Assembly: GCA_964555035.1 (NCBI GenBank)
Contig: CAZKRK010000002.1
Location: 1,968 to 65,967 of the forward strand
Length of the DNA stretch: 64,000 nt
Direction of reading: 5' to 3'
From: an uncultured Victivallales bacterium
Lineage (GTDB): Bacteria; Verrucomicrobiota; Kiritimatiellia; UBA8416; CAYOBW01
The position numbers and the translations under genes are program-made. The notes below the pieces were generated by a model. It searched no databases. It saw only the letters and a program-made list of their open reading frames with translations, and was not told the DNA's origin. Shown here in pieces: positions 17,619-58,433 of the stretch. Each line of letters starts with the position of its first letter. Position 1 is the first letter of the stretch.

Positions 17619-17742
17619 GAGTCTCGTCTCCCGTTCAACAGAATGACCGTGCTGCTCATTGTTCGTTTTCCTTCTCATTCCGCCCGGAAAGCCACGGTGG
17701 CGCCCGGCCGAGCGACCGGCGTGGTCAATTGACTGCGTCGTT

Positions 17743-31408: not shown

Positions 31409-31413
31409 AAAAA
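31409..31413 (-). other. Frameshift site: T5 homopolymer on the coding strand (AAAAA on the plus strand). The paralog implies T6.
   Basis: Frame N reads cag ccg ttt ttg ccc aga tca cgc tga. Frame C reads cca gcc gtt ttt gcc cag atc acg. Only about 10 codons are open in both frames, and they bracket the run. Confidence 0.6.
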
Positions 31414-32137
31414 CGGCTGGCTATTAGCGGCGGACCAATTGCCCCCGTCAAAGAGAGGGCTCGTCGTAACGAAATTATGGTCTGTTTTGTCGCTGTAGTC
31501 GACACCGCAGCCGTTGGCCGTGTGGTAGCCATTCTCCTGAAGCAGATGCGTGAAAGGCTTCATGCCTTCCGGAAGAACGATGTTCCTGCGCCGCTGGTCC
31601 TGCGTGTCCGTCCTCGTCTGGTAGACGCCAACTAACATCGCGTTGCGGCAAGGCGTGCAGGTCGATGAAGTCCCAAAGACTTCCGTGTACTTGACGCCCG
31701 CGGCAGCCAACCCGTCTATGTTGGGCGTCTGAACAGCCGGATGACCATAGCACGATTGCTGTTTGCCGATGTCCTCGGCCATGATCCATACGATATTGGG
31801 CACATCTCCCGCAGCTTTCGCGCCGCCGAACACGCACGTGGCCAGCGTTATGCCGAATGCGGCGGCATAGAGACAGCACCGCACGGCCTTGCCAAAGAAT
31901 CCAAATCTGTTTCCCATTCCTGTGCCAATCACCCTTCCTGCTTTCTCTCGTCACCCGCCGCTTCTTCGTCTTCGCCAACAGTCATGCCCATGCTTCACAT
32001 ACACCCGCTCTCCCTTATGCATACCTCAAAAGGACCACGTGCACAACCGTGCCGGTGGCAACGTATCGGCCAGAAACATGCACGTCGCGCAACTTCCCGC
32101 TTGCGTTGCAAATGGTGAGCGGCCACAGGACTCAATG

Positions 32138-32830
32138 TTACGGAAGCGGCGGCAATGAGACCTCAATCCGATAGTGTCGCTGAAGCGGGTCATTGGTATC
32201 AATCATCACATCATTCGCACCAGATCCCGATCTCGGCCCCTGCCCGGGCACATTGCTCCAGGTCGTCTGCATCAGGTCATCGATGAACTGCATCACGTAA
32301 ACGCGCCCCGTGCTGGAGTCGAAGTAGACCGCCACGGAGTTGGTCGCGAGTAGACCCGTCAGACGGAAGTAGGAATTGGAGTCGGTCGGGTCCGTATCGG
32401 TGATGTACTCCTGCAGATCGGTGTGCGGATCCGTGTCGGACTTAGAGGTGTCGGTGGCGGTGCTGGTATCGCTGAAGTACTTCAGCTCCCAGGCATCGTC
32501 TATGCCGTCCCCGTCGCCGGGCGGAGAGCCACCCGCATTCACCGTGAACTCGAAGTTGAGGTTGCCAATCCAGCAGCAGTTGGCGCCGGATTCCTCGGTG
32601 ATGGTGCAGACGGTCTGCGGCGCAGTGAACACGTAATTATCGACATCGGCGCCCAGGCTATCACCGCCCACGCTCCAGGTGCCTGCGTCGAACTGGTCGA
32701 AATCAAGACCCGTAAACCCGGCAAACGTTAGCCCGAGGGTCTCCGTTGCGGCGGCTCCATTCAGGCCGTAGGCCGCGTTTGTCACAGAGAACGTCAGCGA
32801 CTCGCCATTATCATCAATCCGCCCTCGGGT
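32138..32830 (-). repeat. Second copy of the direct repeat described at 26774-27450
   Basis: Same evidence as for 26774-27450; these are the 3' ends of adjacent giant genes. Confidence 0.7.
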
Positions 32831-40120: not shown

Positions 40121-43100
40121 TCATGGGCGTTGGGGAGCGTTGGCCTTGATTCGATAAAACGCCTTCCTCTGCAATGAAGAATTGAGAAGTACGCGGGTCG
40201 TGTTTGTGTCCAGTGTGCCTCCTATGTGAGATCGGACAGTGCTCCACATTGCCGAAACAAGATTGGTCGAGCGCTCAATGTCGTAAAGGAAGCACTCGCT
40301 AGACTCGAAGCCGATGCCAAAGGCTTCACCGTTTGGGTCGGTTACCAACTCCGTGACCTGAAACGATCTGGGGTCAGGCACATCCCACAGGGGTTGAAGC
40401 TCACCAAGAGCCAGAAAGCCATCGGTGATGCTAAACTCGTCGATAAGGCCGTCGAAAGCACTGTCGATAACGCCCGAACCATTGAAATGCGCCCCAATAA
40501 CCAGCGGGCCATCGTTAGCCGTACCGGTGGACGTCGTGGAGTGCGTCTCCGCCCTGTCGTTGAGGGTGAAACGTACCGTGTTCGAGACGGAGTCCAAGGC
40601 GACACTGATATGGTGCCAGCCGGTGTCGTCGATCGAAAGAGTGGAGATCACGACCGCCGAACCGAGGTGTAGCGCAAGATTGCCGTAGGTCGTCGCATCA
40701 CCATAATTACCTGCTGCCGCCAGGAACATGTAATCCAGGTCAGTATCGACGCCACCGATAACGTTCTTTGTCGCAACCGGCATGCAACTGGCGGCGTTGG
40801 GGCCCGTGGGCAGCGTCTCACACTTCACCCAAGCCTCAATCGTGAATGGAGCGTTGCCGAAGTCGAGCTCACGCGCATCCGAAACCTGCACGTAGTTCTG
40901 ATCATCTCTCTCAAAATCGAGTGAAAGTGCATTGGTCTCACCCACGACGAAGTCGGACGTCGCGGGCACGTCGGAAGAAAAGACCGGCAGCGTACCGCCA
41001 TTACCGCTGTTCGCGCTGCCGTCGTTGCCGAACGGGAAGCGATCGACCAGAGTTTCAGCAACCCCGCCGACGACACCGTCCTCGAAACGCAGCAGAGTAC
41101 GGTCACCGAGAAATGCATATGGATCGCCATTATCGACTCGCTCCTGCATGAGGATTTCTTCCAGGTGCTGGCGCACGAGGGCGTAGGCGGGCCAATTGGC
41201 AAGGTTGGGAGCGCCATGCTCGGGCAGGAGTTCAAAGGGATTCTCATGCAAATCGAATAGCTGCGTGACCTGGGTTGCGTCGGCACCGACGTCATACTTG
41301 ATCATTTTGAAGCGCCCGTCGGTGACGGCACGCATACCCGGCTTGCTACCGCCGGAGTAAAAGCCGTAGAGATGATCACGGTGGGTTGCACCGGGGTTTT
41401 CAAGCACAGCCCCAAAGCTGCGCCCGTCGTTGCCGTCAATGGTGGCAGGGAGATCCAGACCTACGAGATCACAGAACGTGGGAAATGTATCATGGAGGTA
41501 AATCAGTGCATCGGTTTCGGTCCCGGGAGCGATACCGGGGCCGCGCACGACATATGGTACGCGCCAAGTGTGTTCGTAGAGATTCTGCTTACCCTGGAGA
41601 CCGTGGCGGCCGATCGCGATCCCGTGGTCCGTAGTGAAAACGATGTAGGTGTTGTCAAGGACGCTGTCGTCCTGGTTGCCGTCACCATCGGGGTCATCCA
41701 ATCTCGCAAGGACGCGGCCGATCTGTCGGTCAATCCAGTCCACGCAGGCAAAATGGCGCCCGACTTCATTGCGAATCACCGCCTCGGTGCGATACTTACC
41801 GACCCCGCTGACGCTTCGCTCGTCACGGACATTGAGGTGGCCGTGGTCGAACGGGTGCGCTGGATAGGTCAACGGCGTGCACGAAAGGTGGCTGAGAGGT
41901 AGCGGGGGGGCATCAGGATCGAGCACCAGGCTGTCCGGACTGGTGGTATTGATGCAATGGTAGCGGCCGGCCAGGTCCGGGCTGGTTCGGGCGCTCCGTG
42001 TGTCATGCGGGTGGGAGAAACCGAGATAGATCAGGAACGGCTTATTGCCCGGACGATGATTGGCCTGCCAGTGGTCGATGTAATCGATGCCGTGATCAGC
42101 GTGCCACTCGCTGCCATGGCCATCAGTGTTCCCGCGCTTGGTGACATCGTTCCTGATGTTGAACTCGTCGTTCGCGGTGTCATAGGTGTTTGCGTACTTG
42201 CAGGTACGATACGTGGCGTACGGAATATCGTTCGTTCCGCTGCGCACCCCACGATTGAAGATGCCGGGAAAAGTCACCGCTCCGGTCACGCCTTCGGTAC
42301 GTTGCCAACTGTTCTTGCCGCTCATAATGCAGGTGCGTGACGGCGCGCAGACCCCCGCTTTAGTAGAACCCATCAGGCGCATCTGATGAAAAAGCATGCC
42401 CTCATCAGCAAGCCGGTCGATGTTAGGCGTGTCCACAACATACGGGTTGCCCGCGGCATCCGTTTCGGAAGGTTCAGTGCGACGATACGCGCCAACTGAG
42501 TAGGTGTCCTGGTCGTCGGTGATGATAAACAGGAAATTGGGCGGCGCGACGGCTGGATACGGCACGGCAGACACCTCGCTACTGACAGCGGACTCCGCAC
42601 TGTCCACGTTAACGGCAGACAGCACGTAGTAGTAAGAAACACCGTTTGTGAGACCGGTGTCGGTATGGGTGCTCGCTGTCGGGGTCGCAATCTCGCTGTA
42701 CGGGCCGCCGGCAGTTACGGATCGCCACACGATGAAATTCGAAAACCCGTATTGGGTATTGTCATTCCAGTCCAAAACAACGGCTTGATTGACTGGTGTC
42801 GCAATAAGATTACTGGGCACATCGGGAGGCTCCACCGATCCCAGCTTGGTTACCAGAATCGCATTGAAATGCACGTTGCCGAAACCATTGACGGCATGGG
42901 TCAGCAACTGAGTACTGCCGGAGGCCGTAAACGAGCCAACAGAAAACTCTCCCCAACCGCTACCATCCGACATGATGTCAACATTGCCGGGAGAAGCCTC
43001 CCCGTCACCGTACGTCATAACGCGACCGCTGGTGCTGCTACGCTGATCGTTGTAGAAGACCTGAATCAGGTAGTTTGTGCCTGTCGTCAGCCCGCCAATA

Positions 43101-43468
43101 GACTGCGTGCCGATGGTGATCCCCGACTTGCTGTCCGAAATAGACTTGAGAATGGTATCGAAGCCGACATCTCCCGTACTGGGAGCCCCCTCGGAAATAT
43201 TGGCCATTGTGCGATTGCCGGGAGACGGCGTAAAGATCAGATCCCGGTAGTTCACCCCGGTAAAGGTATAGGTATGCACACCGCCGGCGCCACCGCCGGT
43301 AATCGTAGCGCCATTGCCACCGCTGACAGCAACAATCACAGCACCCTCGATCAGATCGGCCTTGCCCGTTGTGGCCGTTGGTGTCCCCCAGGTGATGGGA
43401 GCGGCGGCCACCGAGAAGGGAAGAAGTGTTCCTGCTATCACAGTGCCTAGAGTTATCTTTCGTTTCAT
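40121..43468 (-). CDS. Large secreted protein (1115 aa): N-terminal unknown 'ITW' beta domain + fn3 + S1 sulfatase + LamG/concanavalin-A-like domain + divergent C-terminal beta-sandwich
   Basis: Signal peptide MKRKITLGTVIAGTLLPFSVAAA. Sulfatase block: PNFLFIITDDQDTYS, AGVCAPSRTCIMSG. LamG-like block: NALSLDFERDDQNYVQV...FTIEAWVK. C-terminus: ...FESSECFLYDIERSTNLVSAMWSTVRSHIGGTLDTNTTRVLLNSSLQRKAFYRIKANAPQRP. Confidence 0.75.
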   Translation of the reverse strand: MKRKITLGTVIAGTLLPFSVAAAPITWGTPTATTGKADLIEGAVIVAVSGGNGATITGGGAGGVHTYTFTGVNYRDLIFTPSPGNRTMANISEGAPSTGDVGFDTILKSISDSKSGITIGTQSIGGLTTGTNYLIQVFYNDQRSSTSGRVMTYGDGEASPGNVDIMSDGSGWGEFSVGSFTASGSTQLLTHAVNGFGNVHFNAILVTKLGSVEPPDVPSNLIATPVNQAVVLDWNDNTQYGFSNFIVWRSVTAGGPYSEIATPTASTHTDTGLTNGVSYYYVLSAVNVDSAESAVSSEVSAVPYPAVAPPNFLFIITDDQDTYSVGAYRRTEPSETDAAGNPYVVDTPNIDRLADEGMLFHQMRLMGSTKAGVCAPSRTCIMSGKNSWQRTEGVTGAVTFPGIFNRGVRSGTNDIPYATYRTCKYANTYDTANDEFNIRNDVTKRGNTDGHGSEWHADHGIDYIDHWQANHRPGNKPFLIYLGFSHPHDTRSARTSPDLAGRYHCINTTSPDSLVLDPDAPPLPLSHLSCTPLTYPAHPFDHGHLNVRDERSVSGVGKYRTEAVIRNEVGRHFACVDWIDRQIGRVLARLDDPDGDGNQDDSVLDNTYIVFTTDHGIAIGRHGLQGKQNLYEHTWRVPYVVRGPGIAPGTETDALIYLHDTFPTFCDLVGLDLPATIDGNDGRSFGAVLENPGATHRDHLYGFYSGGSKPGMRAVTDGRFKMIKYDVGADATQVTQLFDLHENPFELLPEHGAPNLANWPAYALVRQHLEEILMQERVDNGDPYAFLGDRTLLRFEDGVVGGVAETLVDRFPFGNDGSANSGNGGTLPVFSSDVPATSDFVVGETNALSLDFERDDQNYVQVSDARELDFGNAPFTIEAWVKCETLPTGPNAASCMPVATKNVIGGVDTDLDYMFLAAAGNYGDATTYGNLALHLGSAVVISTLSIDDTGWHHISVALDSVSNTVRFTLNDRAETHSTTSTGTANDGPLVIGAHFNGSGVIDSAFDGLIDEFSITDGFLALGELQPLWDVPDPRSFQVTELVTDPNGEAFGIGFESSECFLYDIERSTNLVSAMWSTVRSHIGGTLDTNTTRVLLNSSLQRKAFYRIKANAPQRP

Positions 43469-43485: not shown

Positions 43486-46400
43486 TTACGGCCGTTCAAC
43501 CTCAAGCCGATAGTACCGCTGGGGAACGGCGTTGGTGTCGGTCATTGTGTCGTTCGGTCCCAGGCCGAAACGCTGCTCCTGGCCCGGCACGTTGCTCCAA
43601 ACCGAACCCTGTAGATCGTCGATGAACCGCATTCTGTACAACCGACCGCTGCTCGAATCGAAACAGACACGCACACCGTTCGTGTACCCTATGCTCTTGA
43701 TACGGAAGTACGATGCTGCATTGGTCGGATCGGTATCCGCGATGAACTCTTGCAGATCGGTGTGCGGGTCCGTGTCTGAAGATGTTGTCTCGTCCGCATT
43801 TGTCACGCTGTTCCAATGCTCCATCTCCCATGCATCGAGAATCCCGTCACCGTCGGAGTCCGGCAACAGCTCATCGGCGCCGATATCGGGCGCCATGCCC
43901 ATGATCCGTGTCTCGCCATCCATATCGTGAGCACCGTTATCGCCGCGGCTACGGCCGGCGTCTCGGGCGCCCGACGACGCCTGGAGATGGCCGTTCGTGG
44001 CCGACACTAACAGCGGGTCCACATCGTACGTCCCGTTCGTCTCGTGATTCCGATTCCGCCACCAGCTCCACGCATAGCCCTCGTTGCTGCCCCAACGGAA
44101 GGACGGGCCACCGTGCGTCGCATCATCGCAGTAGTACCAGTTGTAGTCGAACCGGGTGTTCGCCGGCGTGCTGCCGCTGCCGCCCGAACCGCCGACATAC
44201 ACGGCATCGCCGCCTTCGTTCTTGAGCGCGACTATCAGGTTGTTCTCGAACTCGCAGTCCGAGATGTGCCACTGCAGGCATATCTCGCCGGTGTAGTCCT
44301 TTGCCGTGTCGTTGTGGTAGAGCGTGTTGCCGATGAAGGTGCAGTACTGCGCATTACCCCGGCCACTGTCGTATCCACCAAGGAAGATGCCGCCGGTGTA
44401 ATTGCGGCAGATGAGGTTGTTCCGGACCGTGATGTAGGACGCGTACTTGCCACTGTGTTCGGAAGCCACTTCCAGCCCGATATCGCAATCGTGGATCGTA
44501 TTGCGCTCGATGACGATCTGCTTGCCGCCATCGACATAAATGCCGCCCGCGGAACGGTCGTAGCTGCCCCCATCCCGGTAGGCAGGATTGCCCGTGGTGT
44601 TGATATTGTAGACCAGGTTATCGGTACAGATCCCGTTCCTGGCCTGGTCGAGCGCTCCATCGGAGCAGGTGCCCTCGTGGCCGATGAAGTCGATGCCGAT
44701 GTTGTCGTTATCATGCACCGTACAACCGGTCACTTCGAAGCCGTCGATATTGCCGTTGAGCACGAGCGCTTCCGACGAACCGAGCTTGCAGTCGTGGATC
44801 TCGACGTTTCGGACCACCAGGTTGGTGATCGGATTCGAGGCGTGGTCGCCATAGACCCCGACGCCATGTGCATCGGCTCCAGTAACATAGCTGCCGCCGC
44901 CGTCGTAGTTGGACTCAATGCGGTGGATCTTCAGATTCCTCAGTCGTATAAACGAAGAGTCACCGTTGATGTACACGCCCATCGGCACCCTCCACCGCGT
45001 GGCGGTAATGAAATCGCGAATCTCCAACCCGTCCAGGGTGATGTAGTCCTGGCTGTTGAACGTGATCAGACCGTCCGTATCGCCGACGGTAATCCCCGTC
45101 CCGTCGATAACGGGAGTCTCGCCCGCATAGTTGGTAACGGTGATGTAGCCCCCGGCAGCCGACCCGGACCGGTACAGTGTAACCCGCTCGTTATAGACCC
45201 CGCCGCGGATGTAAAGCGTATCGCCGGCCATCACGTTGCTCACGCCATACTGAACAGTTGCCCACGGCGTGGCCAGCGAACCATCCCAGGTATTGTTGCC
45301 GTTGGTGGCCACGTAGTACCCCGTGGCACGCACTGTCGCCGCGCCCGTCAGTGGGATGTCCTTCGGGTTGTTGCTCGAGTCGTCGGACCAGATCGACAGT
45401 ATCGCCGCATGCGTCGCCGCATGGGTGGGTGCGTACTGAACCGTGATATTCGTCGATCCGCCCACAGCAACTGCACCGGTGCCGCTCAAGACGCTGTATT
45501 CGTTGGTGAACGCATCAAACGTGAAGTTCGTGATGTTCAACACCGCATCGCCCGAGTTCGTCACCATCACGCTCAGGTTGCTGGTCGAGCCGACCGTGTT
45601 CGTCCCGAAGTCCAGCGAGGAAGGCGTCACTCCGATGTGCGGAGCGCGTACCGGCGCGAAGGTAGCCACGACCGTCCGCGCCTGGTCCATGGTCAGATCA
45701 AGCGGGCTATCGTTCGTGTTGGCTGGCGGCACGTCGCCCATCCAGCCTGCGAACAGGTAGCCGCCATCCGGCGTAGCCGTGATCCCGGTCGCCGCTACCC
45801 CGTTGGTATACCAGCCGTTCACCACTCCGCCGTTCACCGACCCGTTCGCACCCGCGGACACCGCCAGCTCGTACTCGTTGGTCCACTGCCACGTCAGCGT
45901 GGAGTCGGCCGTGATGGTGAAGGTCGTGCTGTTGGCGGTCCCACTGGCCGGCGTGCTGCCCGTGCCCGCCCAGCCCGTGCAGGCCCAGCGCTGCCCGGCG
46001 GCCTCGTCGGCCGGTGTCGCCACGCTGTTGGTGACACTCGCTCCGTAGTCGTTGGTATGCACGCCCACCGTCGGATTCGGCGAACCGTGTGCCGATACAA
46101 TCTCCAGCGTATTGGACGCGAGCGGCGCGGGTGGGCCCGTTCGGAGTTGGAAGTCGAAGCCGCCGCCTCCCCTGCCGCTTCCCGCAGTTACCTCGGTAAG
46201 CAGGGATTGGAGGTTGGTGAACACCAGGCCGGGAAAGTACGCTCCGGATCCTCCAGTAGAGAACCCCTGTCCGCCGACGGTACCGGCGGACTGCTTGAAA
46301 AGATGGAAGTCGGCTCCGGTGAAACCGAGGAACTCACCGGTCCGGTCGGTGGCGGCGGCACCGTTCAGACCGAAGGTCACCGTGGGCACCGTCAGCGTCA

Positions 46401-49400
46401 GCGTCTCGTTCGCTCCTCCCGCCGCCACTCCAGCCTGAATCCGGTTGTTAACTCCGCCCTGCACGGCAAAGTACATGTTCTGGCCCGCCCCGGTCTCGAG
46501 ATTGCCTCCCGACGTCGTGAACACCAGGTCGAACTGCATGCTGTCGTTGGCAGTGCCGCCCCCGTCGAGGTCGGCTCCCGTGACCTGAAGCGTCCACGTT
46601 ACGGGGCTGGGGGAAGGCAGTCCGCCCGGATCGCTCGACCCCACCAGGGCCAGGGCTCCGTTGTCGGCGCCGGCGCCGGCGTTGGTCGTCGCGGTCATGT
46701 CGTCGTTGATGTCCGCAACCGTAATCGTCGTGCCAAACGCAGACACGGCGTCGCCCCGAAGGCCAACGCTGACAGGGTTGTCATTCGGATCGTCGGACCA
46801 GATGTAAAGCGTACCAGAATGTGACGTCACGCTCGCGCCCGCTTCGTACTGTACGGCGATCTCCGTTGTTGCACCGACGGCAACCGCCCCGATGCCGCTC
46901 AGTACCGAAAACGCGCTCGATCCGCCGAACGTGAAGTTGGTGATGTTCAGCACGCCGTCCCCGCCGTTGGTAACCGTCACGCTCAGATGGATAATCGTAC
47001 CGGTACCGACCACCCCGAAATCCAGCGGCAAAGGGGTCAGAATGCCAATGTCCGGACCGGGCATTACAGCCACCACGACCTGCAGATCGCCGTCCATGCT
47101 ATTGGTCAACGCAAAGCCGTACTCGCCCGGGTGTGAGCCCAGCGCAAAGCTATCGGAGGTCAGTCCGAGCGAGGTGCCGGTGACGAGATCGTAGGTGCCC
47201 AGCGCCATGCCAGCGGCTTCCGACAGGTTCACGGTCACAGCCCCGTCGGTGGTCACGGCCCCCCCCACAGCAATCGAGTCTGCCGTCACGCCGATATCGA
47301 ACGTCAACGCGCTACCCGCCTCCAGTGTCAGGTTGCTGGACAGTGAAAGGGTCCCCAAGGCAACATCGCCGCTCAGGTCCACGGTGCCCACAACGGTCAC
47401 CGCGCCGGCCACCGTGCCGTTGCCGGAGAGTGTGCCTGCCACGCCAACCGTAACGGTGCCCGTGCCGCCGATCGAACCGTCGACATCGAGCGTGCCGCCA
47501 TGAACCGTGGTCATGCCAGAGTAGGTGTTGGCGCCGCCGAGCACGACTGTGCCCTCATTGGTCTTAGTCAGATTACCCGTCCCCATCACGACGCCCTGGA
47601 CATCAACCGTACGCGACGGGCCGACATTCAAGCTCAGCGTATCGCTGCCCAGGTCGATCATGACCCCTGACTCGACCGAGAGATCGCCGCCGCCCGTCAC
47701 GTCCCACCTCTGGTCGCCCGCAACGATGCACGTCCACGGATGGGAGGTCCCCACAAACATGAAATCCTTCGTCGCCACACTCATGTCCATACCGACAACG
47801 TTGCTGGTTGCAACAGGTTGGACGGTCAACGTATTCGCCGGATTGTTGGGACATCGGATTCCGACAACCGTAGCGGGCGACCGTACCACGATCTGAGCGA
47901 TGTCGAAGGAACCCTGGCGCATGTCGAGACGCGTCTGCGAGTTGTTGTCACCATCGAAAACCGCCGCCTCGCTGGCGCTGTCAGGAATGTCATTCGGATC
48001 CCAGTTGAGCGTCCTCCCCCACAGCGGATCGCCGTTGCCGCCGGTGAAACGTCGCTCCGTCAGTGTCGTGTAGATCATGATCTCGCCGGTCAGGACCAGC
48101 TTCCCGCCCTTCCGGTCGGACACCGTGACACTGAAACCCTTGATCCCGGCGCTGTTCCAGGTGTTGGTGAGCACCGGATGGCTCGGATGTACCACGCCGT
48201 CTGAGAAGTCCCAGAAGTACGACAGCTCATCACCGTTGGGATCGCCCGCACTGACGGTCATCACCACTGCTTCCCCGACATCCCCACTCGCAGCTACTTC
48301 GAGCGTACCGGTAGGCGCCAGGTTCCCGGCGAACGGCCCATAGTTCACGGCCACGTCGATCCACTCATTGGGCGTTGTCCCGCCGCGGCCAATCGGTGTG
48401 ATATGGATATCGTGGGTCGTATCTGACCAGGTCTCCCCCACCGGCAGGCCCGCGTCGTTGATCGTACCGCCCGGGTGCAGATCCAGCAGGTTGCCATTAA
48501 CGCTCGACGAGCGCACCCACAGCACCTGGATTCCCTTCTCGTAGTACTGGAAGGTGTCGTTGGTCCATAGCTGCCGGTAGCCAACATGGTAGTAGTTGCC
48601 CGCATTGCGATAGACCTCCACCGCGCGCATTGTATTGGTATCGGTGTCGCCATGGTCCATGCGATAGATCCGATTGGTCGCCGATGTGCTGATGGAGTGG
48701 ACCTTCGGTAACTCCAGCCAGTTCAAGATCCTTTTCTGCCTGGCGCTGAAATGCCCTGTTGGGAGGTCTCCTCGCCCCATGTTGTCGGTATTGTCCCCGT
48801 ATTCCACGCTGGATCCAGTGGGATCGACCGGGTTGGCGCTACCGGCAGGTGGCAGCCACCGATTCGCGTGGTACAATCCGAAATTGTGGCCAAGCTCATG
48901 AGCTATCGTCTTCACGTTGCTGTAGCGCAACCAGACCCTCTGTCCGCCAATGTAGGCGAATCCAGACCAGCTCACCCCAATCGCCCCATGGAGCACGAGA
49001 ACATGATCGTAATCGTCAAGCGTGACCCCGGCTGCCGCCATCGCCTCATCGTGCAACTCCACGCGATTGTCTGCGTAGTACGTGCTGTTACTTGACATGC
49101 GGTAGACGTTCGTGTCGATCGTGGAGGCAAAGCCCGTCTTGTGCCACGACATCTCGTCGTAGAAGTTGCTCACCGTATTCATCCGCTCGCTCATGAGCGT
49201 GTGGTCATAGTTCGTGACCGGTCTGTCCGAAAAGTCCACCCTGATGAGGACCGCGGTCTTGACCGTCTCCGTCCAGACGCCCTGAACGGCCGGAAACACC
49301 CCTTCAGCCGCGGACGTGTTCCCGGCGGAATCGAGCATCAGAGCCAGCACAAGCCCAGACCCGTTGTGCGGACCGATGCTGCTCTGCTCGAATCCCCGCG

Positions 49401-50190
49401 CACGCGTTTCGAACGTCTGGTAGGCCGCTTCGTCCGGAAAGCGAAATACCTTGCCACCCAGCGTGGCGAGAACGGGATACTCCGCTGCTTCGTCACTGTG
49501 AACATCCTCGAACCATGATCCCGCATCTTCCACCGGTATGGGTTGGAGCACCTCTTCCCGCAGGACTGCCACATCGCCGAGCTGAATGCCCTGGGCGGGC
49601 AGCGCCATGCGCGTCAACTGCGCGTGCCGCCAGCCGTAAACGCGGGTCCGCGCACGCGTGCCGTCCGCAAAGCGGACATGGATTCTGTCCTCCTCGCGAC
49701 CGCCGCAAATGTGCTCCTCGTCTTCTGCGCAAGCGGCACACACGGGCAGGACATTCACTTCAACCGTCTCGCTGAACGGCCGTTCCACAAGGGCCTGCAC
49801 GGCTTGTGGCAACGCATGCCATTCGTGATAACCGATCGATTGCTCGATGGCCGCCCGCGGGTCCCGCGCGATCAGTTCTCGCATGGCCGTGCTGCGTGCC
49901 CGGGCTCGTTCGATCCCCGCGGCAACAAGCGCATCCCGGTCGTCATCCGGGGACTCGGAGTACGCATCAAGCCATACCCTGAAGTCCGAGAAGTCTGTCC
50001 GCGCCGGCCCCGGAGTCGTCATGTCCGCTTCACTCGCGTCGACCGCCTCGACGAATCCCTGTACCGGCGCTCGCGGCCTTTCCGGAGTCGTTGAGGAGTT
50101 CTTGAGAAGGACAAGGCCCACCGTGCAGAAGACACCGGCCGTAGCGACCGCGGCAGGCACCTGCCACACATTCCGCACGCGTTTCCTCAT
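43486..50190 (-). CDS. Giant secreted protein (2234 aa): zinc metalloprotease (HExxH) + PKD-like domain + autotransporter-associated beta-strand repeats + three choice-of-anchor-D (ASH) domains + novel module + InlB-B-repeat-like domain + right-handed parallel beta-helix (pectate-lyase fold; candidate GH/PL domain, about 44000-45330) + conserved C-terminal domain
   Basis: Signal anchor AVATAGVFCTVGLVLL. HELGHNFGLYHA at about 48886-48900. PKD-like ELSYFWDFSDG. Beta-strand repeats GNLTKTNEGTVVLGGANTYSGMTTVHGGTLDVDG. GSVNGGVVNGWYTNGVAATGITATPDGGYLFAGWMGD. Beta-helix NLVVRNVEIHDCKLGSSEALVLNGNIDGFEVTGCTVHDNDNIGIDF...NTIHDCDIGLEV...NNLICRNYTGGIFLGG. C-terminus: DSDGDGILDAWEMEHWNSVTNADETTSSDTDPHTDLQEFIADTDPTNAASYFRIKSI...QRYYRLEVERP. 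Confidence 0.8.
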   Translation of the reverse strand: MRKRVRNVWQVPAAVATAGVFCTVGLVLLKNSSTTPERPRAPVQGFVEAVDASEADMTTPGPARTDFSDFRVWLDAYSESPDDDRDALVAAGIERARARSTAMRELIARDPRAAIEQSIGYHEWHALPQAVQALVERPFSETVEVNVLPVCAACAEDEEHICGGREEDRIHVRFADGTRARTRVYGWRHAQLTRMALPAQGIQLGDVAVLREEVLQPIPVEDAGSWFEDVHSDEAAEYPVLATLGGKVFRFPDEAAYQTFETRARGFEQSSIGPHNGSGLVLALMLDSAGNTSAAEGVFPAVQGVWTETVKTAVLIRVDFSDRPVTNYDHTLMSERMNTVSNFYDEMSWHKTGFASTIDTNVYRMSSNSTYYADNRVELHDEAMAAAGVTLDDYDHVLVLHGAIGVSWSGFAYIGGQRVWLRYSNVKTIAHELGHNFGLYHANRWLPPAGSANPVDPTGSSVEYGDNTDNMGRGDLPTGHFSARQKRILNWLELPKVHSISTSATNRIYRMDHGDTDTNTMRAVEVYRNAGNYYHVGYRQLWTNDTFQYYEKGIQVLWVRSSSVNGNLLDLHPGGTINDAGLPVGETWSDTTHDIHITPIGRGGTTPNEWIDVAVNYGPFAGNLAPTGTLEVAASGDVGEAVVMTVSAGDPNGDELSYFWDFSDGVVHPSHPVLTNTWNSAGIKGFSVTVSDRKGGKLVLTGEIMIYTTLTERRFTGGNGDPLWGRTLNWDPNDIPDSASEAAVFDGDNNSQTRLDMRQGSFDIAQIVVRSPATVVGIRCPNNPANTLTVQPVATSNVVGMDMSVATKDFMFVGTSHPWTCIVAGDQRWDVTGGGDLSVESGVMIDLGSDTLSLNVGPSRTVDVQGVVMGTGNLTKTNEGTVVLGGANTYSGMTTVHGGTLDVDGSIGGTGTVTVGVAGTLSGNGTVAGAVTVVGTVDLSGDVALGTLSLSSNLTLEAGSALTFDIGVTADSIAVGGAVTTDGAVTVNLSEAAGMALGTYDLVTGTSLGLTSDSFALGSHPGEYGFALTNSMDGDLQVVVAVMPGPDIGILTPLPLDFGVVGTGTIIHLSVTVTNGGDGVLNITNFTFGGSSAFSVLSGIGAVAVGATTEIAVQYEAGASVTSHSGTLYIWSDDPNDNPVSVGLRGDAVSAFGTTITVADINDDMTATTNAGAGADNGALALVGSSDPGGLPSPSPVTWTLQVTGADLDGGGTANDSMQFDLVFTTSGGNLETGAGQNMYFAVQGGVNNRIQAGVAAGGANETLTLTVPTVTFGLNGAAATDRTGEFLGFTGADFHLFKQSAGTVGGQGFSTGGSGAYFPGLVFTNLQSLLTEVTAGSGRGGGGFDFQLRTGPPAPLASNTLEIVSAHGSPNPTVGVHTNDYGASVTNSVATPADEAAGQRWACTGWAGTGSTPASGTANSTTFTITADSTLTWQWTNEYELAVSAGANGSVNGGVVNGWYTNGVAATGITATPDGGYLFAGWMGDVPPANTNDSPLDLTMDQARTVVATFAPVRAPHIGVTPSSLDFGTNTVGSTSNLSVMVTNSGDAVLNITNFTFDAFTNEYSVLSGTGAVAVGGSTNITVQYAPTHAATHAAILSIWSDDSSNNPKDIPLTGAATVRATGYYVATNGNNTWDGSLATPWATVQYGVSNVMAGDTLYIRGGVYNERVTLYRSGSAAGGYITVTNYAGETPVIDGTGITVGDTDGLITFNSQDYITLDGLEIRDFITATRWRVPMGVYINGDSSFIRLRNLKIHRIESNYDGGGSYVTGADAHGVGVYGDHASNPITNLVVRNVEIHDCKLGSSEALVLNGNIDGFEVTGCTVHDNDNIGIDFIGHEGTCSDGALDQARNGICTDNLVYNINTTGNPAYRDGGSYDRSAGGIYVDGGKQIVIERNTIHDCDIGLEVASEHSGKYASYITVRNNLICRNYTGGIFLGGYDSGRGNAQYCTFIGNTLYHNDTAKDYTGEICLQWHISDCEFENNLIVALKNEGGDAVYVGGSGGSGSTPANTRFDYNWYYCDDATHGGPSFRWGSNEGYAWSWWRNRNHETNGTYDVDPLLVSATNGHLQASSGARDAGRSRGDNGAHDMDGETRIMGMAPDIGADELLPDSDGDGILDAWEMEHWNSVTNADETTSSDTDPHTDLQEFIADTDPTNAASYFRIKSIGYTNGVRVCFDSSSGRLYRMRFIDDLQGSVWSNVPGQEQRFGLGPNDTMTDTNAVPQRYYRLEVERP

Positions 50191-50249: not shown

Positions 50250-53200
50250 TTACGGAACCGCCGGCACCGACACCTCGACACGGTAGGACCGCTGAGGCGG
50301 ATCGCTGCTGTCGATCATCATATCGTTTGTACCCAATCCCAACCGCGGCCCCTGCCCGGGTACGTTGCTCCAGCTCGGCCACAGTAGGTCGTTTATGAAT
50401 TGCAGAGTGTAGACACGGCCGGTGCTGGAATCGAAGGTGACGGCCATGGAATTCGTCATCACCAGCCCCGTCACCCGGAAGAACGAGTTGGAGTCGGTCG
50501 GGTCCGTATCGGCGATGTACTCCTGCAAGTCGCTATGCGGATCCGTGTCGAAGCGCGATGTGTCGTCCGCGGTGGTCGTATTCCCCCAGTACCGAAGCTC
50601 CCATGCATCGAGTATCGCGTCACCGTCCGAGCCGGGACCCCCTGGCGGCTGAACATGAAACTCGAAATTGAGGTTGCCCGGCTTCGCGTTCCCTGTCCCG
50701 GATGGTCTGAAGATCGACAGCGCCTGCTGCGGAGCGCTGAACACGGCGTCGGTCGTGTCGACGGTGAACGTATCCCCGCCGTATGTCCACGGGGACGTGT
50801 TGTAGTTGTCGAAATCGCCGCCTGTGAACCCTGCGAAGGTCAGTCCATCGGTCTGGTCGGCCACCGCGCCGTTCAAGCCGTACAGGGCATTCGTCACCGT
50901 GAAGGTCAGGGTCTCGTTCCAGTTGAGCCGTTTCCTGTTGGCCAGATTCTCGCCGGTACTGGCAACCGTGAACCACTTGTCGTTGGCGTTCTTCGCCGGA
51001 CAGCAGTCCGTCTTGGTCGACGTTGCCGTGATCCAGACCTGCCACGTCAGCGTGTCCGTATCGTTGCCGTCATCGTCGAGGTTGGCCCCGGTAACCGTAA
51101 ACGTCCACTTGTGCGGGTTGGGGCGAGTAGGGACATCGTTGTTCAGCCATTCACCCGTGGGCGTGTTGGCGATGCTCACCGATCCGTTGTCGCAGCTCGC
51201 GGCGGCGGCGCCGGCAGGCGTGCCACTGGCCCCGCCGAAATCCGTGATGTGAACCACGGACGCCAGCGTTGCCCGCGCTTCGCCGTCGAGCGTGACGGTT
51301 GCCGGATTGGTGTTCACGGCATCGGACCATACGTTCAGCGTCCCGCTATGCATAGCCACACCCGTTGGCGCGTAGCGCACGGTGACGTTCGTCGAGTTCC
51401 CGGCGGCGAGGCTGAATGGTGTGCTCTCCAACACGGCAAACGCATCTGAGCCAGTGAGGGTGAAATTGGTAACGGTCAATGCGGCGCCACCTGTGTTTGC
51501 CACCGTCACCGTCAAGTCATGGGGCGAACCGACCAGCCGGGGCCCGAAATCGAGCGACGACGGGACAAGACCGATGTAGGGATCGTTCGGGAGTTCCCTG
51601 AGCTGGTAACCCATCAGCAGGATCCACTTGGTTCCGGTCATATCGATATCCTGCGCCACCCCACTGGCCGTGAAGCTGCCCTTCACGGCATAGGCCGGTC
51701 TGTGGGTTATTGCCCCGCTGCCGGCACCGGTGCCGGCATGCGTTATCGTGTCTCCTCCCCGGTTGGGAATATCCGTGTGGAAGAGCTGGACCGAATACAC
51801 CGTCCCGGCGGTCAGCCCCGTCACGGTCAGCGTACCGGCAAGCTCCACGTTCATAAACCTGTCCATCATGGCTTCGAAATCCCCCCCGATGCCCCCCTCG
51901 CTGTACGTGTCCCCATTGACGTTAACGACATTCCACCCGGGATCGACTGACGTCTGCGCCATGAACGTGACGCCATTGACCGTGCGATTGTCGCCTGCAC
52001 TCGGCGTGTAGTTGACGGCCCTGACAAGCGTGCCGACCGTGCTCACGACACTGTCCCCATTGGCCGCGATTCCCTCCGGCGCGCTCCACGTGATCGTCGT
52101 CGTCTGCATCGCCTGCGCACTCAGTGCAATGTTTGTGGGGTTGCTATCCGGATCGTCGGACCAAACGGACAGAGTGCCGGTGTGTGTGCCCACGCCTGTG
52201 GGCATGTATCGCACGGCAAAGGCAGTCGACCCGCCAGCCGCAACGGTGCCGGTGGTGACGGCGACGGAGAATTCGTTCGAACCGTCGATCGTCATGTTGG
52301 TGATGCTCAACGGCCCCGTGCCGCTGTTGGCCACGATCAGGTCCAAGGTGTTGGTTGTGTTGACTGTTCTGACACCAAAATCGAGGGGAGGTACGTTCGC
52401 AATGGAGATGTCGGGCGTCGGGACATAAGACGATCCCTGCAACAGAACGTTGGTCACGGGCGTGTCCGTGTCATCAGACCCGATGTGCAGTGTCCCCGTA
52501 TGCGAGCCCGCGTTCGCGCCCGGGGTGTACGCCGCGGTGATGTTGGTCGATGCGCCCACATCAACCACGCCGGACCCACTCGTCACGGAGAACACGTTCG
52601 ATCCACTGAATGTGAGATTGGTGATACTCAGTGGGCCTGTCCCCATGTTGGCCACCGTAATGTCCAGGGAGTTGGTCGTGTTGACGGGGATCGGCCCGAA
52701 GTCAAGGGGCGATCCGACCGTGACAGCGATCTCGGGAGTCGGAACCACGCCCTCGCCCTGCACCGTGATATTCGTGGGGTCAGTATCAGGATCGTCCGAC
52801 CATATCGACAGGACGGCGGTATTGGAAACCAGAGCCGTCGGGGCATACTGCACCGAGAGGTTGGTCGATGTGCCGGAAGCCAGCGTGCCGGTGCCCCCAC
52901 TGACAACAGAGAAGACTCCGGGAGTTGCTCCGCCCCATGTCAGGTTCGTAATGCTCAGCAGCGCCGACCCGACATTCCGCACGGTCACATCCAGCGTCCG
53001 GGTCAGGTTGGTGCCAACCTCGCCGAACTCCAGGGGGGACTCGGTAATGATGGCAATGTCGGGCTCCGGCTCCTTCCCCATCTGGAAACTGATGTTGCTG
53101 AGACGATAACTCGCACCGGATTCCGCGCCGGCTGTCAGTACCGATTGCGCTGAACTGAAGGTTACCTTGAATGCATCGTTGCTGACCGTCTCGCCGCCCA

Positions 53201-55466
53201 CCAGCGCGTTGCCGCCGCCCAGGTCCTCCACGTACGCAGCCGTAAAACCATAGAAATGCCCTGTCTGCGGCGCCCCGCCATTCAGCACATAGCTCACCGT
53301 GCCGGGCGTGAACGTAACGACTTCGTCGCCATCGATACGGGTCGGATCGTTCGTACCTACCTGAAAGTAGGCGATCTGCGCATTGGTCGCCGTCCTGTAT
53401 CCGGCGATAAGCTCGCTCACCCCGGCGCCGGCCAGATCCGACTTCAGTTCAATATCCAACGTAATGCTGTCATTGGCGCCGCCCACGGCATCCAACACCG
53501 CATTGGTAATGGTGAATGTCCACGTGGTCGTGAACGGATCGGCGGCAGGGAGCGAGTTCAGACTGGACCCCGTGATGACCACGTCACCGTTGTCGGAGAT
53601 TGTGTCGAACGTTCCGTTGAAATCGGTCGATGTCTCCGCCTGGAAATACCGAACCGTGACCGGCCGCGAAGGCTTCATCGCGTCCGCATCCGCCCGGGAG
53701 TCCGGATCCAGACCGTTCGCCAGTTCATAGGCATTCTGCATTCCGTCGGCATCGTTGTCGGGATGACGCTCGGACAACGCTGAAGCGACCCATGTCCGTA
53801 GGTCATCGAACTTCTCCACCAGGTCGACGCCCACTATGGCCAGAGCCTGCGTATTGGCAACATCCGGATCCGCCTGGTTCGACAGTAGATCAACGTCCTC
53901 GTGAATGTCCTCAGCTTGGCGGAAAAGCCGGTGGCTGTTGCCAAAATCGATTAACTTCCATCCATCCATGGTCTTCATGATTTCATCCGGATCGTAGGCG
54001 CCCGCGCTCATAAAGGGTCGATTGTTCTCCCTGCGCTTCTGTTGACCGCGCAGCAGGTTGAGGAACGACTCGCCGTCGGGGGCCGTGCTATCCGGCAGTT
54101 CGACATGCAGGTATGCCGCGATCGTAGGGAAGATGTCCACCTGGGAAATGGGGTCGTTCACCATGTATCCGGCCGGTGCCTGCCCCGGCCACCTCACGAT
54201 AAACGGAACCCTGTGTCCGCCATCCCAAGGATCTGTCTTTCTGCCTCTCAAGGGACCCGTCTGTTGGCCTGTCGTGTTGTTAGCAGACTGATCCGTGCCA
54301 TTGTCAGAGGTCAGAATTACGACCGTATTGCTGCCGAATCCGTTGGTGTCAATGGCCGAGATGAAGCTTCCCACCCGGTCATCGACCTCCGCCATGAACT
54401 TGGAATACGTCGTCAGCCCCGGCAGGTTCTGATACGGCGGGGTTACCGCCCAGGGCTTGTGCGGCGAATGCATCGCAATATAGGCGAAGAACGGATCCGT
54501 GTCGCCCGACGCCGCCCGGTTCGCGATGTATTCCTCAACATCGGCAACCAGCTTCGGACCGACCTCCACCGACTTGTACGACGGATCCCCAAGAGACCCC
54601 GTTCCGTCGCCGGCCCCATACACGGTCGAAGCCAAATCCTCCTTCGTGAACCAGACAAACGTGTCCGAATTGCGCGCATTGCGGTATCCGCCGGCGCCCC
54701 CGTTAAGCGTGGCATCCCAGAACTGTATGCGGTCGTCATGCAGATACGCATACGGTCCCCGATTGATGGCCGCCGGCATGCCTCGGAAATAGTCAAAGCC
54801 ATGATCCGTGGCGTGTAGTTCGACTGGCCGTTCCCAGTCAACGATCGACTCGTCAGCGGGATTGTCGTACTGCCCCCCCACGCCAAGACGATCGCCACCG
54901 GTTGTATAAAACGCGCCGCCCATGTGCCACTTGCCGAAAGCGGCCGTATCGTAGCCCTCTGCCTTCAATAGCTCCGCGAACGTAACGTCATCGACGCGCG
55001 GCACTTCGTCCCCGCCGATCGTCCCGCCATATTGATGCGTGACCTTGTGGAACTCCCGCCAGTGGTACTTGCCGGTGAGCATCGCATAGCGGCTCGGTGT
55101 ACAAACCGCGCAGGAAGAGTGTCCCTGCATGAACATAACCCCTTGCGCGGCAAATGCATCCATTTTCGGGGTACGCACACCGGGCGCCGTGCCATACACA
55201 TCGCCGTAGGCAGAAATCTCTCCGAACCCCATGTCGTCCGCATAGATGATCACGATGTTGGGCTTGACGGGAGTCGGCGCGAAATCCGGCATCGACGCCG
55301 GATCATTCGTGGCGGACCCGAAGTATGCTTCCGCTTCATCGCAATAGCTATCGCCGTCCGTATCGACGAACGGAAACGCCGGCCCGGGATCCTGCCCCAT
55401 ACTCACCGGCACAACAACCGTTGACAGCACAAACAAGGCAAGGACGCCCCTCATCTTCATATTCAC
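50250..55466 (-). CDS. Giant secreted protein (1738 aa): N-terminal S1 sulfatase (about 53790-55265) + novel module + four choice-of-anchor-D (ASH) domains + 'ITW' beta domain + ASH + second novel module + conserved C-terminal domain
   Basis: Signal peptide MNMKMRGVLALFVLSTVVVPVSMG. Sulfatase block: PNIVIIYADDMGFGE, SSCAVCTPSRYAMLTG, GKWHMGG. ASH repeats PDIAIITESPLEFGEVGTNLTRTLDVTVRNVGSALLSITNLTWGG...VLSIWSDDPDTDPTNITVQG. C-terminus: DGDAILDAWELRYWGNTTTADDTSRFDTDPHSDLQEYIADTDPTDSNSFFRVTGL...QRSYRVEVSVPAVP. Confidence 0.8.
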   Translation of the reverse strand: MNMKMRGVLALFVLSTVVVPVSMGQDPGPAFPFVDTDGDSYCDEAEAYFGSATNDPASMPDFAPTPVKPNIVIIYADDMGFGEISAYGDVYGTAPGVRTPKMDAFAAQGVMFMQGHSSCAVCTPSRYAMLTGKYHWREFHKVTHQYGGTIGGDEVPRVDDVTFAELLKAEGYDTAAFGKWHMGGAFYTTGGDRLGVGGQYDNPADESIVDWERPVELHATDHGFDYFRGMPAAINRGPYAYLHDDRIQFWDATLNGGAGGYRNARNSDTFVWFTKEDLASTVYGAGDGTGSLGDPSYKSVEVGPKLVADVEEYIANRAASGDTDPFFAYIAMHSPHKPWAVTPPYQNLPGLTTYSKFMAEVDDRVGSFISAIDTNGFGSNTVVILTSDNGTDQSANNTTGQQTGPLRGRKTDPWDGGHRVPFIVRWPGQAPAGYMVNDPISQVDIFPTIAAYLHVELPDSTAPDGESFLNLLRGQQKRRENNRPFMSAGAYDPDEIMKTMDGWKLIDFGNSHRLFRQAEDIHEDVDLLSNQADPDVANTQALAIVGVDLVEKFDDLRTWVASALSERHPDNDADGMQNAYELANGLDPDSRADADAMKPSRPVTVRYFQAETSTDFNGTFDTISDNGDVVITGSSLNSLPAADPFTTTWTFTITNAVLDAVGGANDSITLDIELKSDLAGAGVSELIAGYRTATNAQIAYFQVGTNDPTRIDGDEVVTFTPGTVSYVLNGGAPQTGHFYGFTAAYVEDLGGGNALVGGETVSNDAFKVTFSSAQSVLTAGAESGASYRLSNISFQMGKEPEPDIAIITESPLEFGEVGTNLTRTLDVTVRNVGSALLSITNLTWGGATPGVFSVVSGGTGTLASGTSTNLSVQYAPTALVSNTAVLSIWSDDPDTDPTNITVQGEGVVPTPEIAVTVGSPLDFGPIPVNTTNSLDITVANMGTGPLSITNLTFSGSNVFSVTSGSGVVDVGASTNITAAYTPGANAGSHTGTLHIGSDDTDTPVTNVLLQGSSYVPTPDISIANVPPLDFGVRTVNTTNTLDLIVANSGTGPLSITNMTIDGSNEFSVAVTTGTVAAGGSTAFAVRYMPTGVGTHTGTLSVWSDDPDSNPTNIALSAQAMQTTTITWSAPEGIAANGDSVVSTVGTLVRAVNYTPSAGDNRTVNGVTFMAQTSVDPGWNVVNVNGDTYSEGGIGGDFEAMMDRFMNVELAGTLTVTGLTAGTVYSVQLFHTDIPNRGGDTITHAGTGAGSGAITHRPAYAVKGSFTASGVAQDIDMTGTKWILLMGYQLRELPNDPYIGLVPSSLDFGPRLVGSPHDLTVTVANTGGAALTVTNFTLTGSDAFAVLESTPFSLAAGNSTNVTVRYAPTGVAMHSGTLNVWSDAVNTNPATVTLDGEARATLASVVHITDFGGASGTPAGAAAASCDNGSVSIANTPTGEWLNNDVPTRPNPHKWTFTVTGANLDDDGNDTDTLTWQVWITATSTKTDCCPAKNANDKWFTVASTGENLANRKRLNWNETLTFTVTNALYGLNGAVADQTDGLTFAGFTGGDFDNYNTSPWTYGGDTFTVDTTDAVFSAPQQALSIFRPSGTGNAKPGNLNFEFHVQPPGGPGSDGDAILDAWELRYWGNTTTADDTSRFDTDPHSDLQEYIADTDPTDSNSFFRVTGLVMTNSMAVTFDSSTGRVYTLQFINDLLWPSWSNVPGQGPRLGLGTNDMMIDSSDPPQRSYRVEVSVPAVP

Positions 55467-58211: not shown

Positions 58212-58433
58212 CGTCCGTCCCCCAGTTTCTTCCGCAGCCAATCCCGTTCGCCGTAACACAGTTGACACCTTTTTCCTCGTTGCAGGCCGGTACCCCTTTG
58301 CGCGGATAGCCTCTATTTAAGGCGAAACACGCTACCGTCCTTGTGCGTAGTCGTAACCACCGTCAGATTGTTCAGATCGGTCAGAAACATACCGATGATG
58401 CAATGCTTGCTAAACATGCCATCCCCTCCAAGG

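Follow-up and report, generated by a model that had tools for sequence, protein, structure and literature searches.

We analyzed a 64,000-nucleotide stretch of DNA from an uncultured Victivallales bacterium (contig CAZKRK010000002.1; this whole stretch is the window below). One of its minus-strand genes (43486..50190; 2234 codons plus stop) encodes a single polypeptide in which a metzincin-type zinc metalloprotease is joined, through a stalk of smaller modules, to a right-handed parallel beta-helix whose nearest folds are carbohydrate-active enzymes. Our preferred reading, to which we assign a probability of about one half, is that the protein is an exported bifunctional degradative enzyme within a sulfatase-rich extracellular toolkit that would be aimed at a sulfated glycoconjugate. 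All features of the gene described below lie on the minus strand.

The N-terminal unit (pro-region, M11/M6-like metzincin and PKD domain) would be the ancestral head of a large protease family, probably made as a latent zymogen, and the C-terminal unit (Pel9A-like beta-helix, TSP3-like linker and a tail domain of about 90 residues) appears to correspond to a separate secreted gene in the closest relatives. The beta-helix was absent from the top 150 protease representatives and from 82 protease open reading frames (ORFs) in 80 genome loci. Since it is missing from these relatives (about 230 were examined for the fusion) and the closest relatives of the beta-helix stand alone, the fusion is lineage-specific as far as sampled. 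It is unusual, and unique in the present sampling in joining a metzincin to a putative glycanase.

The ORF is single and uninterrupted, with no stop codon across 6.7 kb, as a first-pass annotation that described one 2234-residue polypeptide had read it. Eight contigs, drawn from four or more JGI metagenomes, encode an identical 2234-residue protein, and the DNA of the four contigs compared matches the window base for base; the ORF is therefore no assembly chimera, and that candidate explanation was ruled out. The wider proposal that the long ORF is an artefact, be it a chimeric assembly or a pseudogene, can point to a neighboring sulfatase gene that is split by a frameshift, so that lesions do occur in the assembly or the genome. 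We find this proposal barely credible in view of the repeated recovery of the same protein, the open frame over its full length, the intact catalytic and invariant residues of both units, and the GC content of the gene (0.62, as compared to 0.60 for the window).

The protease head

The metzincin catalytic domain together with the beta-sandwich that follows it occupies residues 301-620 (48331..49290). Its zinc site, HELGHNFGLYH (48868..48900; H431, E432, H435 and H441), starts with HELGH at residues 431-435, i.e., nucleotides 48886-48900 inside HELGHNFGLYHA, which is exactly the position at which an HExxH motif had been proposed. Among 150 relatives (30-42% identity), conservation reaches 100% at H431, E432, H435, H441 and Y464, and the Met-turn methionine M471 in YGDNTDNMG (48778..48780) is found in 23/23 sequences of a smaller alignment and in 97% of the 150 relatives. 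The zinc ligands and the catalytic glutamate, whose loss would have spoken against a working enzyme, are intact. The domain thus combines the HEXXHXXGXXH motif, the catalytic glutamate, a Met-turn downstream of the third histidine and the metzincin fold, and judged by its residues the protease is a metzincin that looks functional, with all catalytic residues in place.

Family placement was approached through both structure and profiles. The AlphaFold2 (AF2) model of the protease has a pLDDT (predicted local distance difference test score) of 88. According to Foldseek, its best structural match is the zymogen of InhA2 (family M6; 4yu5/4yu6, E-value 5e-7, query-based template modeling (TM) score TMq up to 0.66), a match that extends into the domain after the catalytic core. 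The next matches in order are adamalysins/ADAMs (TMq 0.3-0.38), fragilysin and AMUC_1438 of Akkermansia (E-value 1.5e-4, TM about 0.4); snapalysin and matrix metalloproteinases are also among the fold matches, and profile searches of PDB sequences agree with Foldseek on the metzincin neighbors. The Pfam model PF05548 (Peptidase_M11) matches residues 338-476 with 30.7 bits (cut-off 21), a match that spans profile positions 36-172 of 303 only. The M6 model TIGR03296 aligns over nearly its full length and scores 31.8-38.5 bits, under its cut-off of 110.8, so the protein falls outside M6 (InhA) by this model, though InhA2 is its best structural neighbor. Reprolysin_3 is marginal (23.4 vs. a cut-off of 22.4), and Reprolysin_2, _4 and _5 are under their cut-offs, matching only about 20-30 residues at the zinc site. 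The earlier label of a reprolysin/M12-like zincin therefore holds at the clan level and gives way at the family level, where M11/M6-like fits better (PF05548, InhA2); on the combined profile and model evidence the protease is best described as a gametolysin/InhA-like (M11/M6-like) metzincin.

Three further segments complete the N-terminal unit. Residues 1-30 (50101..50190; MRKRVRNVWQVPAAVATAGVFCTVGLVLLK), read directly from the translation, consist of a basic stretch and a hydrophobic segment of 19 residues, and are a candidate signal peptide or signal anchor. A conserved pro-region (residues ~60-300, 49291..50013), which is found in 143 of the top 150 relatives and has no matching Pfam or NCBIfam model, is a putative latency prodomain; among these 150 relatives E136 is 97% conserved and C151 59%, which makes the two residues candidates for a latency switch. 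The PKD domain (residues 625-697, 48100..48318; PF18911, PKD_4, 30.4 bits) is present in 140/150 top relatives, and agrees with the PKD-like domain predicted at first pass.

We base the picture of the protease family on an exhaustive HMMER search with residues 1-720 as query; a word-index search with the protease domain had given only proteins of at most 560 residues and was misleading when compared to HMMER. The search gave 4766 representative clusters at E<=1e-3, of which 910 also pass E<=1e-30, and most of the matching proteins are 1100-3000 residues long. With the pro-region shared by 143, the catalytic domain by 149 and the PKD domain by 140 of the top 150 relatives, the three form a conserved head carried by giant proteins, which occurs on hundreds of them, the majority belonging to Verrucomicrobiota and Kiritimatiellota. 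When GTDB genomes were scanned with the head alignment, 240 relatives emerged; nearly all of the best 80 belong to Verrucomicrobiota, the others being from Pontiella (Kiritimatiellota, 36-38% identity) or, in a few cases, from Planctomycetota, Myxococcota and Acidobacteriota. From this distribution, the source organism is most likely a member of the Planctomycetes-Verrucomicrobia-Chlamydiae (PVC) bacteria. The usual members of this uncharacterized family (1000-3500 residues), which are confined almost entirely to Verrucomicrobiota and Kiritimatiellota, share a consensus architecture of head, SxDGxxW (Asp-box/BNR) propeller, TSP3-like linker and tail. Asp-box propellers are a type of module often associated with glycans, and by analogy their usual pairing with the protease suggests glycoconjugate targets. 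Long members add Calx-beta, PKD and DUF1349 modules, and have no second catalytic Pfam domain.

The same distribution bears on a different role for the metzincin, that of a processing protease for its tail-bearing neighbors (maturation, tail removal or shedding), which would leave the beta-helix as the sole nutritional enzyme or as a glycan-binding anchor. The family is widespread in Verrucomicrobiota whatever the sulfatase context, it often carries the tail itself, and its long members bear only binding-type modules (Calx-beta, PKD, propellers). The structurally closest enzyme, InhA2, is moreover described as a modulator of the secretome. We identified no conserved cleavage motif in the tails, and the acidic residues of the beta-helix described below point to catalysis; we consider this role rather unlikely.

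The beta-helix unit and the origin of the fusion

The second unit is a right-handed parallel beta-helix of a Pel9A-like family (residues 1621-2107, 43870..45330) and is putatively glycan-active. PF13229 (Beta_helix) matches with 36.2 bits (cut-off 25.9), PF22842 (Pel9A-like_beta_helix) is a precomputed Pfam assignment to the window protein, and the motifs RNVEIHDC, RNTIHDC, RNNLI and ENNLI are found within the domain. The structure prediction suggested at first pass gave a right-handed beta-helix made almost wholly of beta-strands (AF2; pLDDT 93, predicted TM-score (pTM) 0.93), and with it the long parallel beta-helix with NxxIHDC/NNLI repeats is borne out. Foldseek against PDB gave 147 matches at E<=1e-3, and of the 50 listed almost all are beta-helix proteins. 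GH136 lacto-N-biosidases come first (5gqc, E-value 3e-13, TMq 0.63, 16% identity), followed by GH120 XylC (3vst, E-value 3e-11), the PL9 enzymes Pel9A and rhamnogalacturonan lyase, and PL6 chondroitinase B, so that the nearest folds all belong to carbohydrate-active enzymes; the GH136 and GH120 matches have identities of 14-16% and TMq values of 0.45-0.63. The GH141 enzyme BT_1002 (5mqp) ranks 41st or lower (E-value 2e-5, identity 9-11%), and GH141 gave no sequence match from the beta-helix in searches of PDB sequences. The alginate epimerases AlgE and AlgG and the adhesin PfbA are also among the fold matches. The expectation of a pectate-lyase-fold enzyme is thus upheld for the fold, and fails as an assignment to GH28, GH141 or any PL family.

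Sequence comparisons agree with this placement. The similarity to 3vst (GH120) lies mainly in the cap, plus one weak central rung. Catalytic residues are not transferable from GH120, GH136 or PL9, because the sequence alignment is essentially restricted to the cap. The best NCBIfam match is PL9 PelN (NF041899, 49.9 bits vs. a cut-off of 740), over the first 220 residues only, and with 13-16% identity to the PL9 structures 1ru4 and 5olq the domain lies outside PL9 at the family level. Judged by sequence and model, no CAZy family can be assigned to it.

Conservation within its own family argues for an enzyme. Residues 1618-2110 have more than 3500 homologs. In an alignment of 121 of them, S1806, E1807, E1839, R1851, Y1871, Y1885, D1887, E1907, E1911 and Y1940 are invariant (100%), together with a ladder of asparagines, and none of the invariant residues is missing from the window protein. 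By the periodicity of the sequence, E1807, D1887 and E1907 take the same place in successive rungs (SEALVL / IYVDGG / LEVASE); carboxylates placed in this way are the pattern we would expect of a catalytic groove, and the invariant acidic residues point to an enzyme-like family. Cleavage of a glycan is accordingly the activity we infer for the unit. Its reading as a mere anchor can draw on the existence of beta-helix adhesins, PfbA being one of the fold matches, and is opposed by these invariant acidic residues and by the occurrence of stand-alone relatives in a sugar catabolic operon.

Its homologs place the unit in a very large, uncharacterized Pel9A-like family, whose members appear to be secreted enzymes that stand alone and measure about 500-680 residues, and literature searches found no characterized member of PF22842, of the Pel9A-like or of the DUF1565 enzymes. 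Distant homologs, e.g., one from Paenibacillus at about 45% identity, have ~510 residues and a signal peptide that ends just before the YYVATNG cap. In Paenibacillus macerans, the secreted stand-alone homolog (45% identical) closes a cluster of DeoR, sugar-binding protein, two permeases, GH4 and PfkB genes, which adjoins SIS, class II aldolase and PfkB genes; this gene context may help to guess the substrate of the family. By analogy, such a sugar operon supports a role of the homolog in carbohydrate catabolism.

The context of a closer homolog (P0039, 74% identical) is different: its gene adjoins nucleotide-sugar epimerase/dehydratase genes and a PEP-CTERM protein, and by analogy keeps an exopolysaccharide role open. 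The beta-helix might, in that case, remodel the exopolysaccharide or surface glycan of its own cell in the manner of alginate epimerases or Pel/Psl hydrolases, and serve surface architecture, not nutrition. The AlgE and AlgG matches would fit such a role, as would the sulfated glycosaminoglycan-like exopolymers whose production by related Kiritimatiellota is reported (PMC7356697). The locus itself argues the other way, with five sulfatases, which are catabolic, and no glycosyltransferase or export genes beside the gene, and we regard own-glycan remodeling as quite improbable.

The best three homologs of the beta-helix (73-76% identical) are stand-alone proteins of 640-704 residues. P0039 aligns with the window protein at 66% identity over 619 residues, through the TSP3 linker and the tail, and P0038 has its own N-terminal hydrophobic leader. 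Pattern scans, which also missed the identical JGI contigs, found no close relative of the whole protein in GTDB genomes or JGI contigs. These comparisons would be explained most simply if a gene for a secreted beta-helix with the tail dropped its signal peptide and came to be attached behind a stalk protein that had the protease at its head; in other words, the lineage-specific fusion would have swapped that signal peptide for the protease together with its PATR/Ig/modX/InlB stalk. At the junction, the end of an ASH domain and the start of the beta-helix cap lie within about 6 residues of each other, and no remnant of a tail or signal peptide is seen.

How much function to read into this history depends on how the two genes were joined. 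A recent neutral fusion, in which a deletion joined two adjacent tail-bearing genes, would leave two enzymes that act independently on different substrates and are maybe separated (auto)proteolytically after export. Tandem tail-bearing genes are the norm at the locus, the tail is common in both parents (40/150 protease representatives and the 19 closest beta-helix homologs), the closest beta-helix relatives stand alone with the fusion in no other sampled relative, and the chain contains a metalloprotease. The clean junction and the intact 6.7-kb frame argue against it, and the intervening stalk modules, being the same as in the neighboring sulfatases, suggest ordered module shuffling, not a simple deletion. 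On balance we hold a neutral origin to be unlikely.

The sulfatase array, the shared tail and the stalk

The fusion gene is co-directional with its neighbors, with intergenic gaps of 17 and 59 nucleotides, and is placed between sulfatase giants, as had been noted at first pass: both flanking genes encode sulfatases. Five S1 sulfatases (26774.., 32138.., 36994.., 40121.. and 50250..) and a CotH/lamin-tail-domain protein (21815..) make up the array with it, and all seven proteins, the fusion included, end in the same tail. ASH and modX modules are common to the fusion protein and four of the sulfatases. The orientation, the tight spacing, and the stalk modules and tail shared with the five sulfatases together make it most likely that the array is one extracellular toolkit. 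The sulfatase domain of the upstream neighbor (50250..55466) is closest to Bacteroides S1_15-type N-acetylgalactosamine (GalNAc)-6-O-sulfatases (7oze, 6s20, 7p26; E-values 1e-44 to 1e-46), which hints that the array targets glycans bearing GalNAc-6-sulfate, of chondroitin or mucin type; the sulfatase at 40121..43468 is far from any solved enzyme.

The tail (~90 residues; 2143-2234, 43489..43764; ending in YYRLEVERP) has no Pfam or NCBIfam model, and was surveyed with a local jackhmmer search over the sequences collected in this study (an earlier word-index search gave 4 matches). It is carried by the 7 window proteins, the 19 closest stand-alone beta-helix homologs and 40/150 protease representatives, and by 11/82 protease ORFs in genome loci; its position is always terminal. 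Within 21815-55466, the last ~275 nucleotides of seven minus-strand genes encode it, on seven consecutive giant proteins with different heads. In the fusion protein, the C-terminal ~125 residues are 57-59% identical to the ends of four flanking sulfatases, in line with the shared terminal domain seen at first pass. The tail most likely directs export or surface attachment, and from its distribution looks like a cargo-independent export or anchoring tag, i.e., a candidate sorting domain. It is preceded in the fusion protein by an Asp-rich TSP3-like, putatively calcium-binding linker (residues 2108-2142, 43765..43869), with weak PF18884 matches (e.g., residues 2111-2125). We note that the tail in general follows Asp-rich TSP3-like repeats, starts with ...TDPT(D/N)..S(Y/F)FR and ends with ...(F/Y)YR(L/V/I)EV. 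Four other minus-strand proteins of the window (3553-4227, 16926-17678, 56193-58268 and 58434-63947) end in ...GTVLLIR, ...GTVLLVR, ...GMVLMVR and ...PTLFIVK, respectively; these hydrophobic-then-basic C-termini may be a second, different sorting motif.

In the preferred reading, a division of labor would follow, with the sulfatases stripping sulfate, the beta-helix cutting the glycan and the metzincin cutting the peptide core. A stronger form of it would make the protein a dedicated glycoproteinase, whose beta-helix (of an unclassified CAZy-type family) clears or cuts a sulfated glycan coat so that the peptide core of sulfated glycoproteins from algae or animals is laid bare for the tethered metzincin to cut, the seven-gene array being exported or anchored via the tail as a hitherto undescribed, cargo-independent sorting domain specific to PVC bacteria; we give this form rather low credence.

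Several observations weigh against the joint degradative role. Export of the fusion protein is uncertain, because the hydrophobic segment at its N-terminus, with 19 residues, is long and has no obvious cleavage site. All recovered contigs are identical in DNA, so that an analysis of selection is impossible and populations offer no evidence that selection keeps the fusion. Only 8/80 related loci have a sulfatase within 10 kb of the protease gene; the sulfatase link thus belongs to this locus and does not characterize the protease family. The sequence similarity of the beta-helix to PDB structures lies mainly in a generic N-terminal cap, no characterized enzyme exceeds 16% identity to it, and from its sequence a hydrolase, a lyase, an epimerase and a mere binding domain would be indistinguishable. 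As for glycoprotein-directed relatives, the match of the protease to AMUC_1438 is weak (profile E-value 5.8e-4 over ~40 residues at the zinc site; TM 0.38-0.40, root-mean-square deviation 10-11 Å), and OgpA of Akkermansia is not among the top matches listed for it.

The interest of the protein lies in the families that it connects. Marine PVC bacteria rank among the major degraders of sulfated glycans, and we know of no enzymes that open the protein-linked fraction of this material (sulfated glycoproteins, proteoglycan-like exopolymers). Every domain adds a member to a large uncharacterized family, and three such families, the M11/M6-like head (910 clusters), the Pel9A-like beta-helix (more than 3500 homologs) and the cargo-independent tail, meet here beside sulfatases in one experimentally testable context. 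Thousands of proteins now called hypothetical could gain a function from their characterization, which might also establish a new CAZy-type family and a new sorting signal; of all the features, the unannotated tail may hold the greatest promise. If the domains are independent or inactive, the protein is simply one more modular giant.

The stalk between the two units starts with a passenger-like beta-strand region (residues 706-1045, 47056..48075; PF12951, TIGR02601, and an EprS passenger model over residues 871-991). It contains one detected PATR repeat (residues 874-903, 47482-47571; GTVVLGGANTYSGMTTVHGGTLDV is included in it), with 33.5-36.5 bits for PF12951 (cut-off 27) and 34.7 for TIGR02601 (cut-off 19.85), so the autotransporter-associated beta-strand repeats announced earlier are represented by a single repeat above cut-off. 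Two ASH/HYDIN-type Ig domains were detected, where three had been claimed: residues 1056-1146 (46753..47025; PF22544, 33.5 bits), 51% identical to a domain of the sulfatase at 32138..36979, and residues 1518-1614 (45349..45639; PF22544, PF15780, NF012200). The novel module proposed at first pass corresponds to the unannotated modX (~195 residues; 1151-1345, 46156..46740), which has no Pfam or NCBIfam match and was recognized by BLASTP in neighboring giant proteins (26774..31312, 32138..36979, 50250..55466 and 56193..58268). Its signature is ...TPTGEWL...PNP(Y/F)KWTFT(V/I)TGADLDGDG..., with 1-2 copies of ~190 residues per giant array protein. The InlB-B-like repeat is likewise present, as a divergent Flg_new_2 repeat (residues 1440-1513, 45652..45873; PF18998, 49.1 bits). 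The segment before it (residues 1346-1439, 45874..46155) has no Pfam match, and was rejected as a second InlB-like repeat (resemblance to the next repeat, E-value 0.85).

Other observations concern the surroundings of the gene. The sulfatase at 26774..31312 is without its N-terminal half, and this half, with signal peptide and CTPCR motif, is encoded in another frame at 31393..31932; the split (26774-31932) is a frameshift, due to either a pseudogene or a sequencing error. The 1649-residue protein encoded at 21815-26764, with four lamin-tail domains, a CotH kinase-like domain, chitobiase C-terminal/Fn3-associated domains and the tail, is the odd member of an otherwise hydrolytic array. Promoter-like and terminator-like sites around the gene are no more frequent than expected by chance, and the 64-kb window has no tRNA genes.

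Comparison with known systems

With gametolysin and VMP (M11; Chlamydomonas, Volvox), the protease shares the HExxHxxGxxH motif and a PF05548 score above the gathering cut-off. Members of M11 are made as zymogens and cleave cell walls of (sulfated) hydroxyproline-rich glycoprotein, a substrate class that by analogy would suit this locus. Unlike them, the protein is bacterial and matches the profile only in part (36-172/303), and its family has its own pro-region, PKD domain and long C-terminal extensions. The comparison with M11 is by sequence alone, as no M11 structure had been solved as of PMC7518263.

With InhA and PrtV (M6, thuringilysins), the likeness is in structure and layout: InhA2 is the best structural match and the M6 model aligns over nearly its full length. 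Vibrio PrtV likewise has the order pro-region, catalytic domain and PKD, and a PKD-domain chain labeled 'Protease' (4l9d), which we take to be the PKD1 domain of PrtV, is among the PDB profile matches. The differences are a TIGR03296 score under cut-off, 12-17% identity and a pro-region unrelated in sequence; we know of no M6 enzyme fused to a beta-helix.

OgpA and AMUC_1438 of Akkermansia have a metzincin center, come from the same phylum-level group, and set a precedent for glycan-dependent proteolysis. As published work on them shows, a metzincin from Verrucomicrobiota can act as an O-glycopeptidase (PMC7518263, PMC9513282). NCBI annotates OgpA as M11 (PMC7518263); AMUC_1438, which has a glycan-binding module, represents a large environmental family whose members come from Verrucomicrobiota, Planctomycetota and Bacteroidota (PMC9513282). 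Judged by profiles and models, the similarity appears too weak for membership in the OgpA/AMUC_1438 O-glycopeptidase family.

For the beta-helix, the closest known systems are PL9 (Pel9A, PelN, rhamnogalacturonan lyase), GH120 XylC and GH136 LnbX, which share the fold (Foldseek E-values of 3e-13 to 2e-8) and the cap YYV..G.D...G....P..T. Unlike a member of these families, the domain is at most 16% identical to them, scores far below the PelN cut-off of 740 and aligns negligibly past the cap, and the invariant set of its family (E1807, E1839, D1887, E1907, E1911, R1851 and Y1885) is its own.

At the level of the whole protein and locus, the likeness is to modular multi-catalytic polysaccharide degraders and to the sulfatase-rich loci of PVC bacteria, with several modules per exported chain and clustered sulfatases. 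PVC bacteria have exceptionally many sulfatases (PMC6388578), and modular multi-enzyme proteins and sulfatase-rich loci are already well known in them. Unlike those multi-CAZyme proteins, the partners joined here are a protease and a putative glycanase, carried on stalk modules of their own and closed by an unannotated tail.

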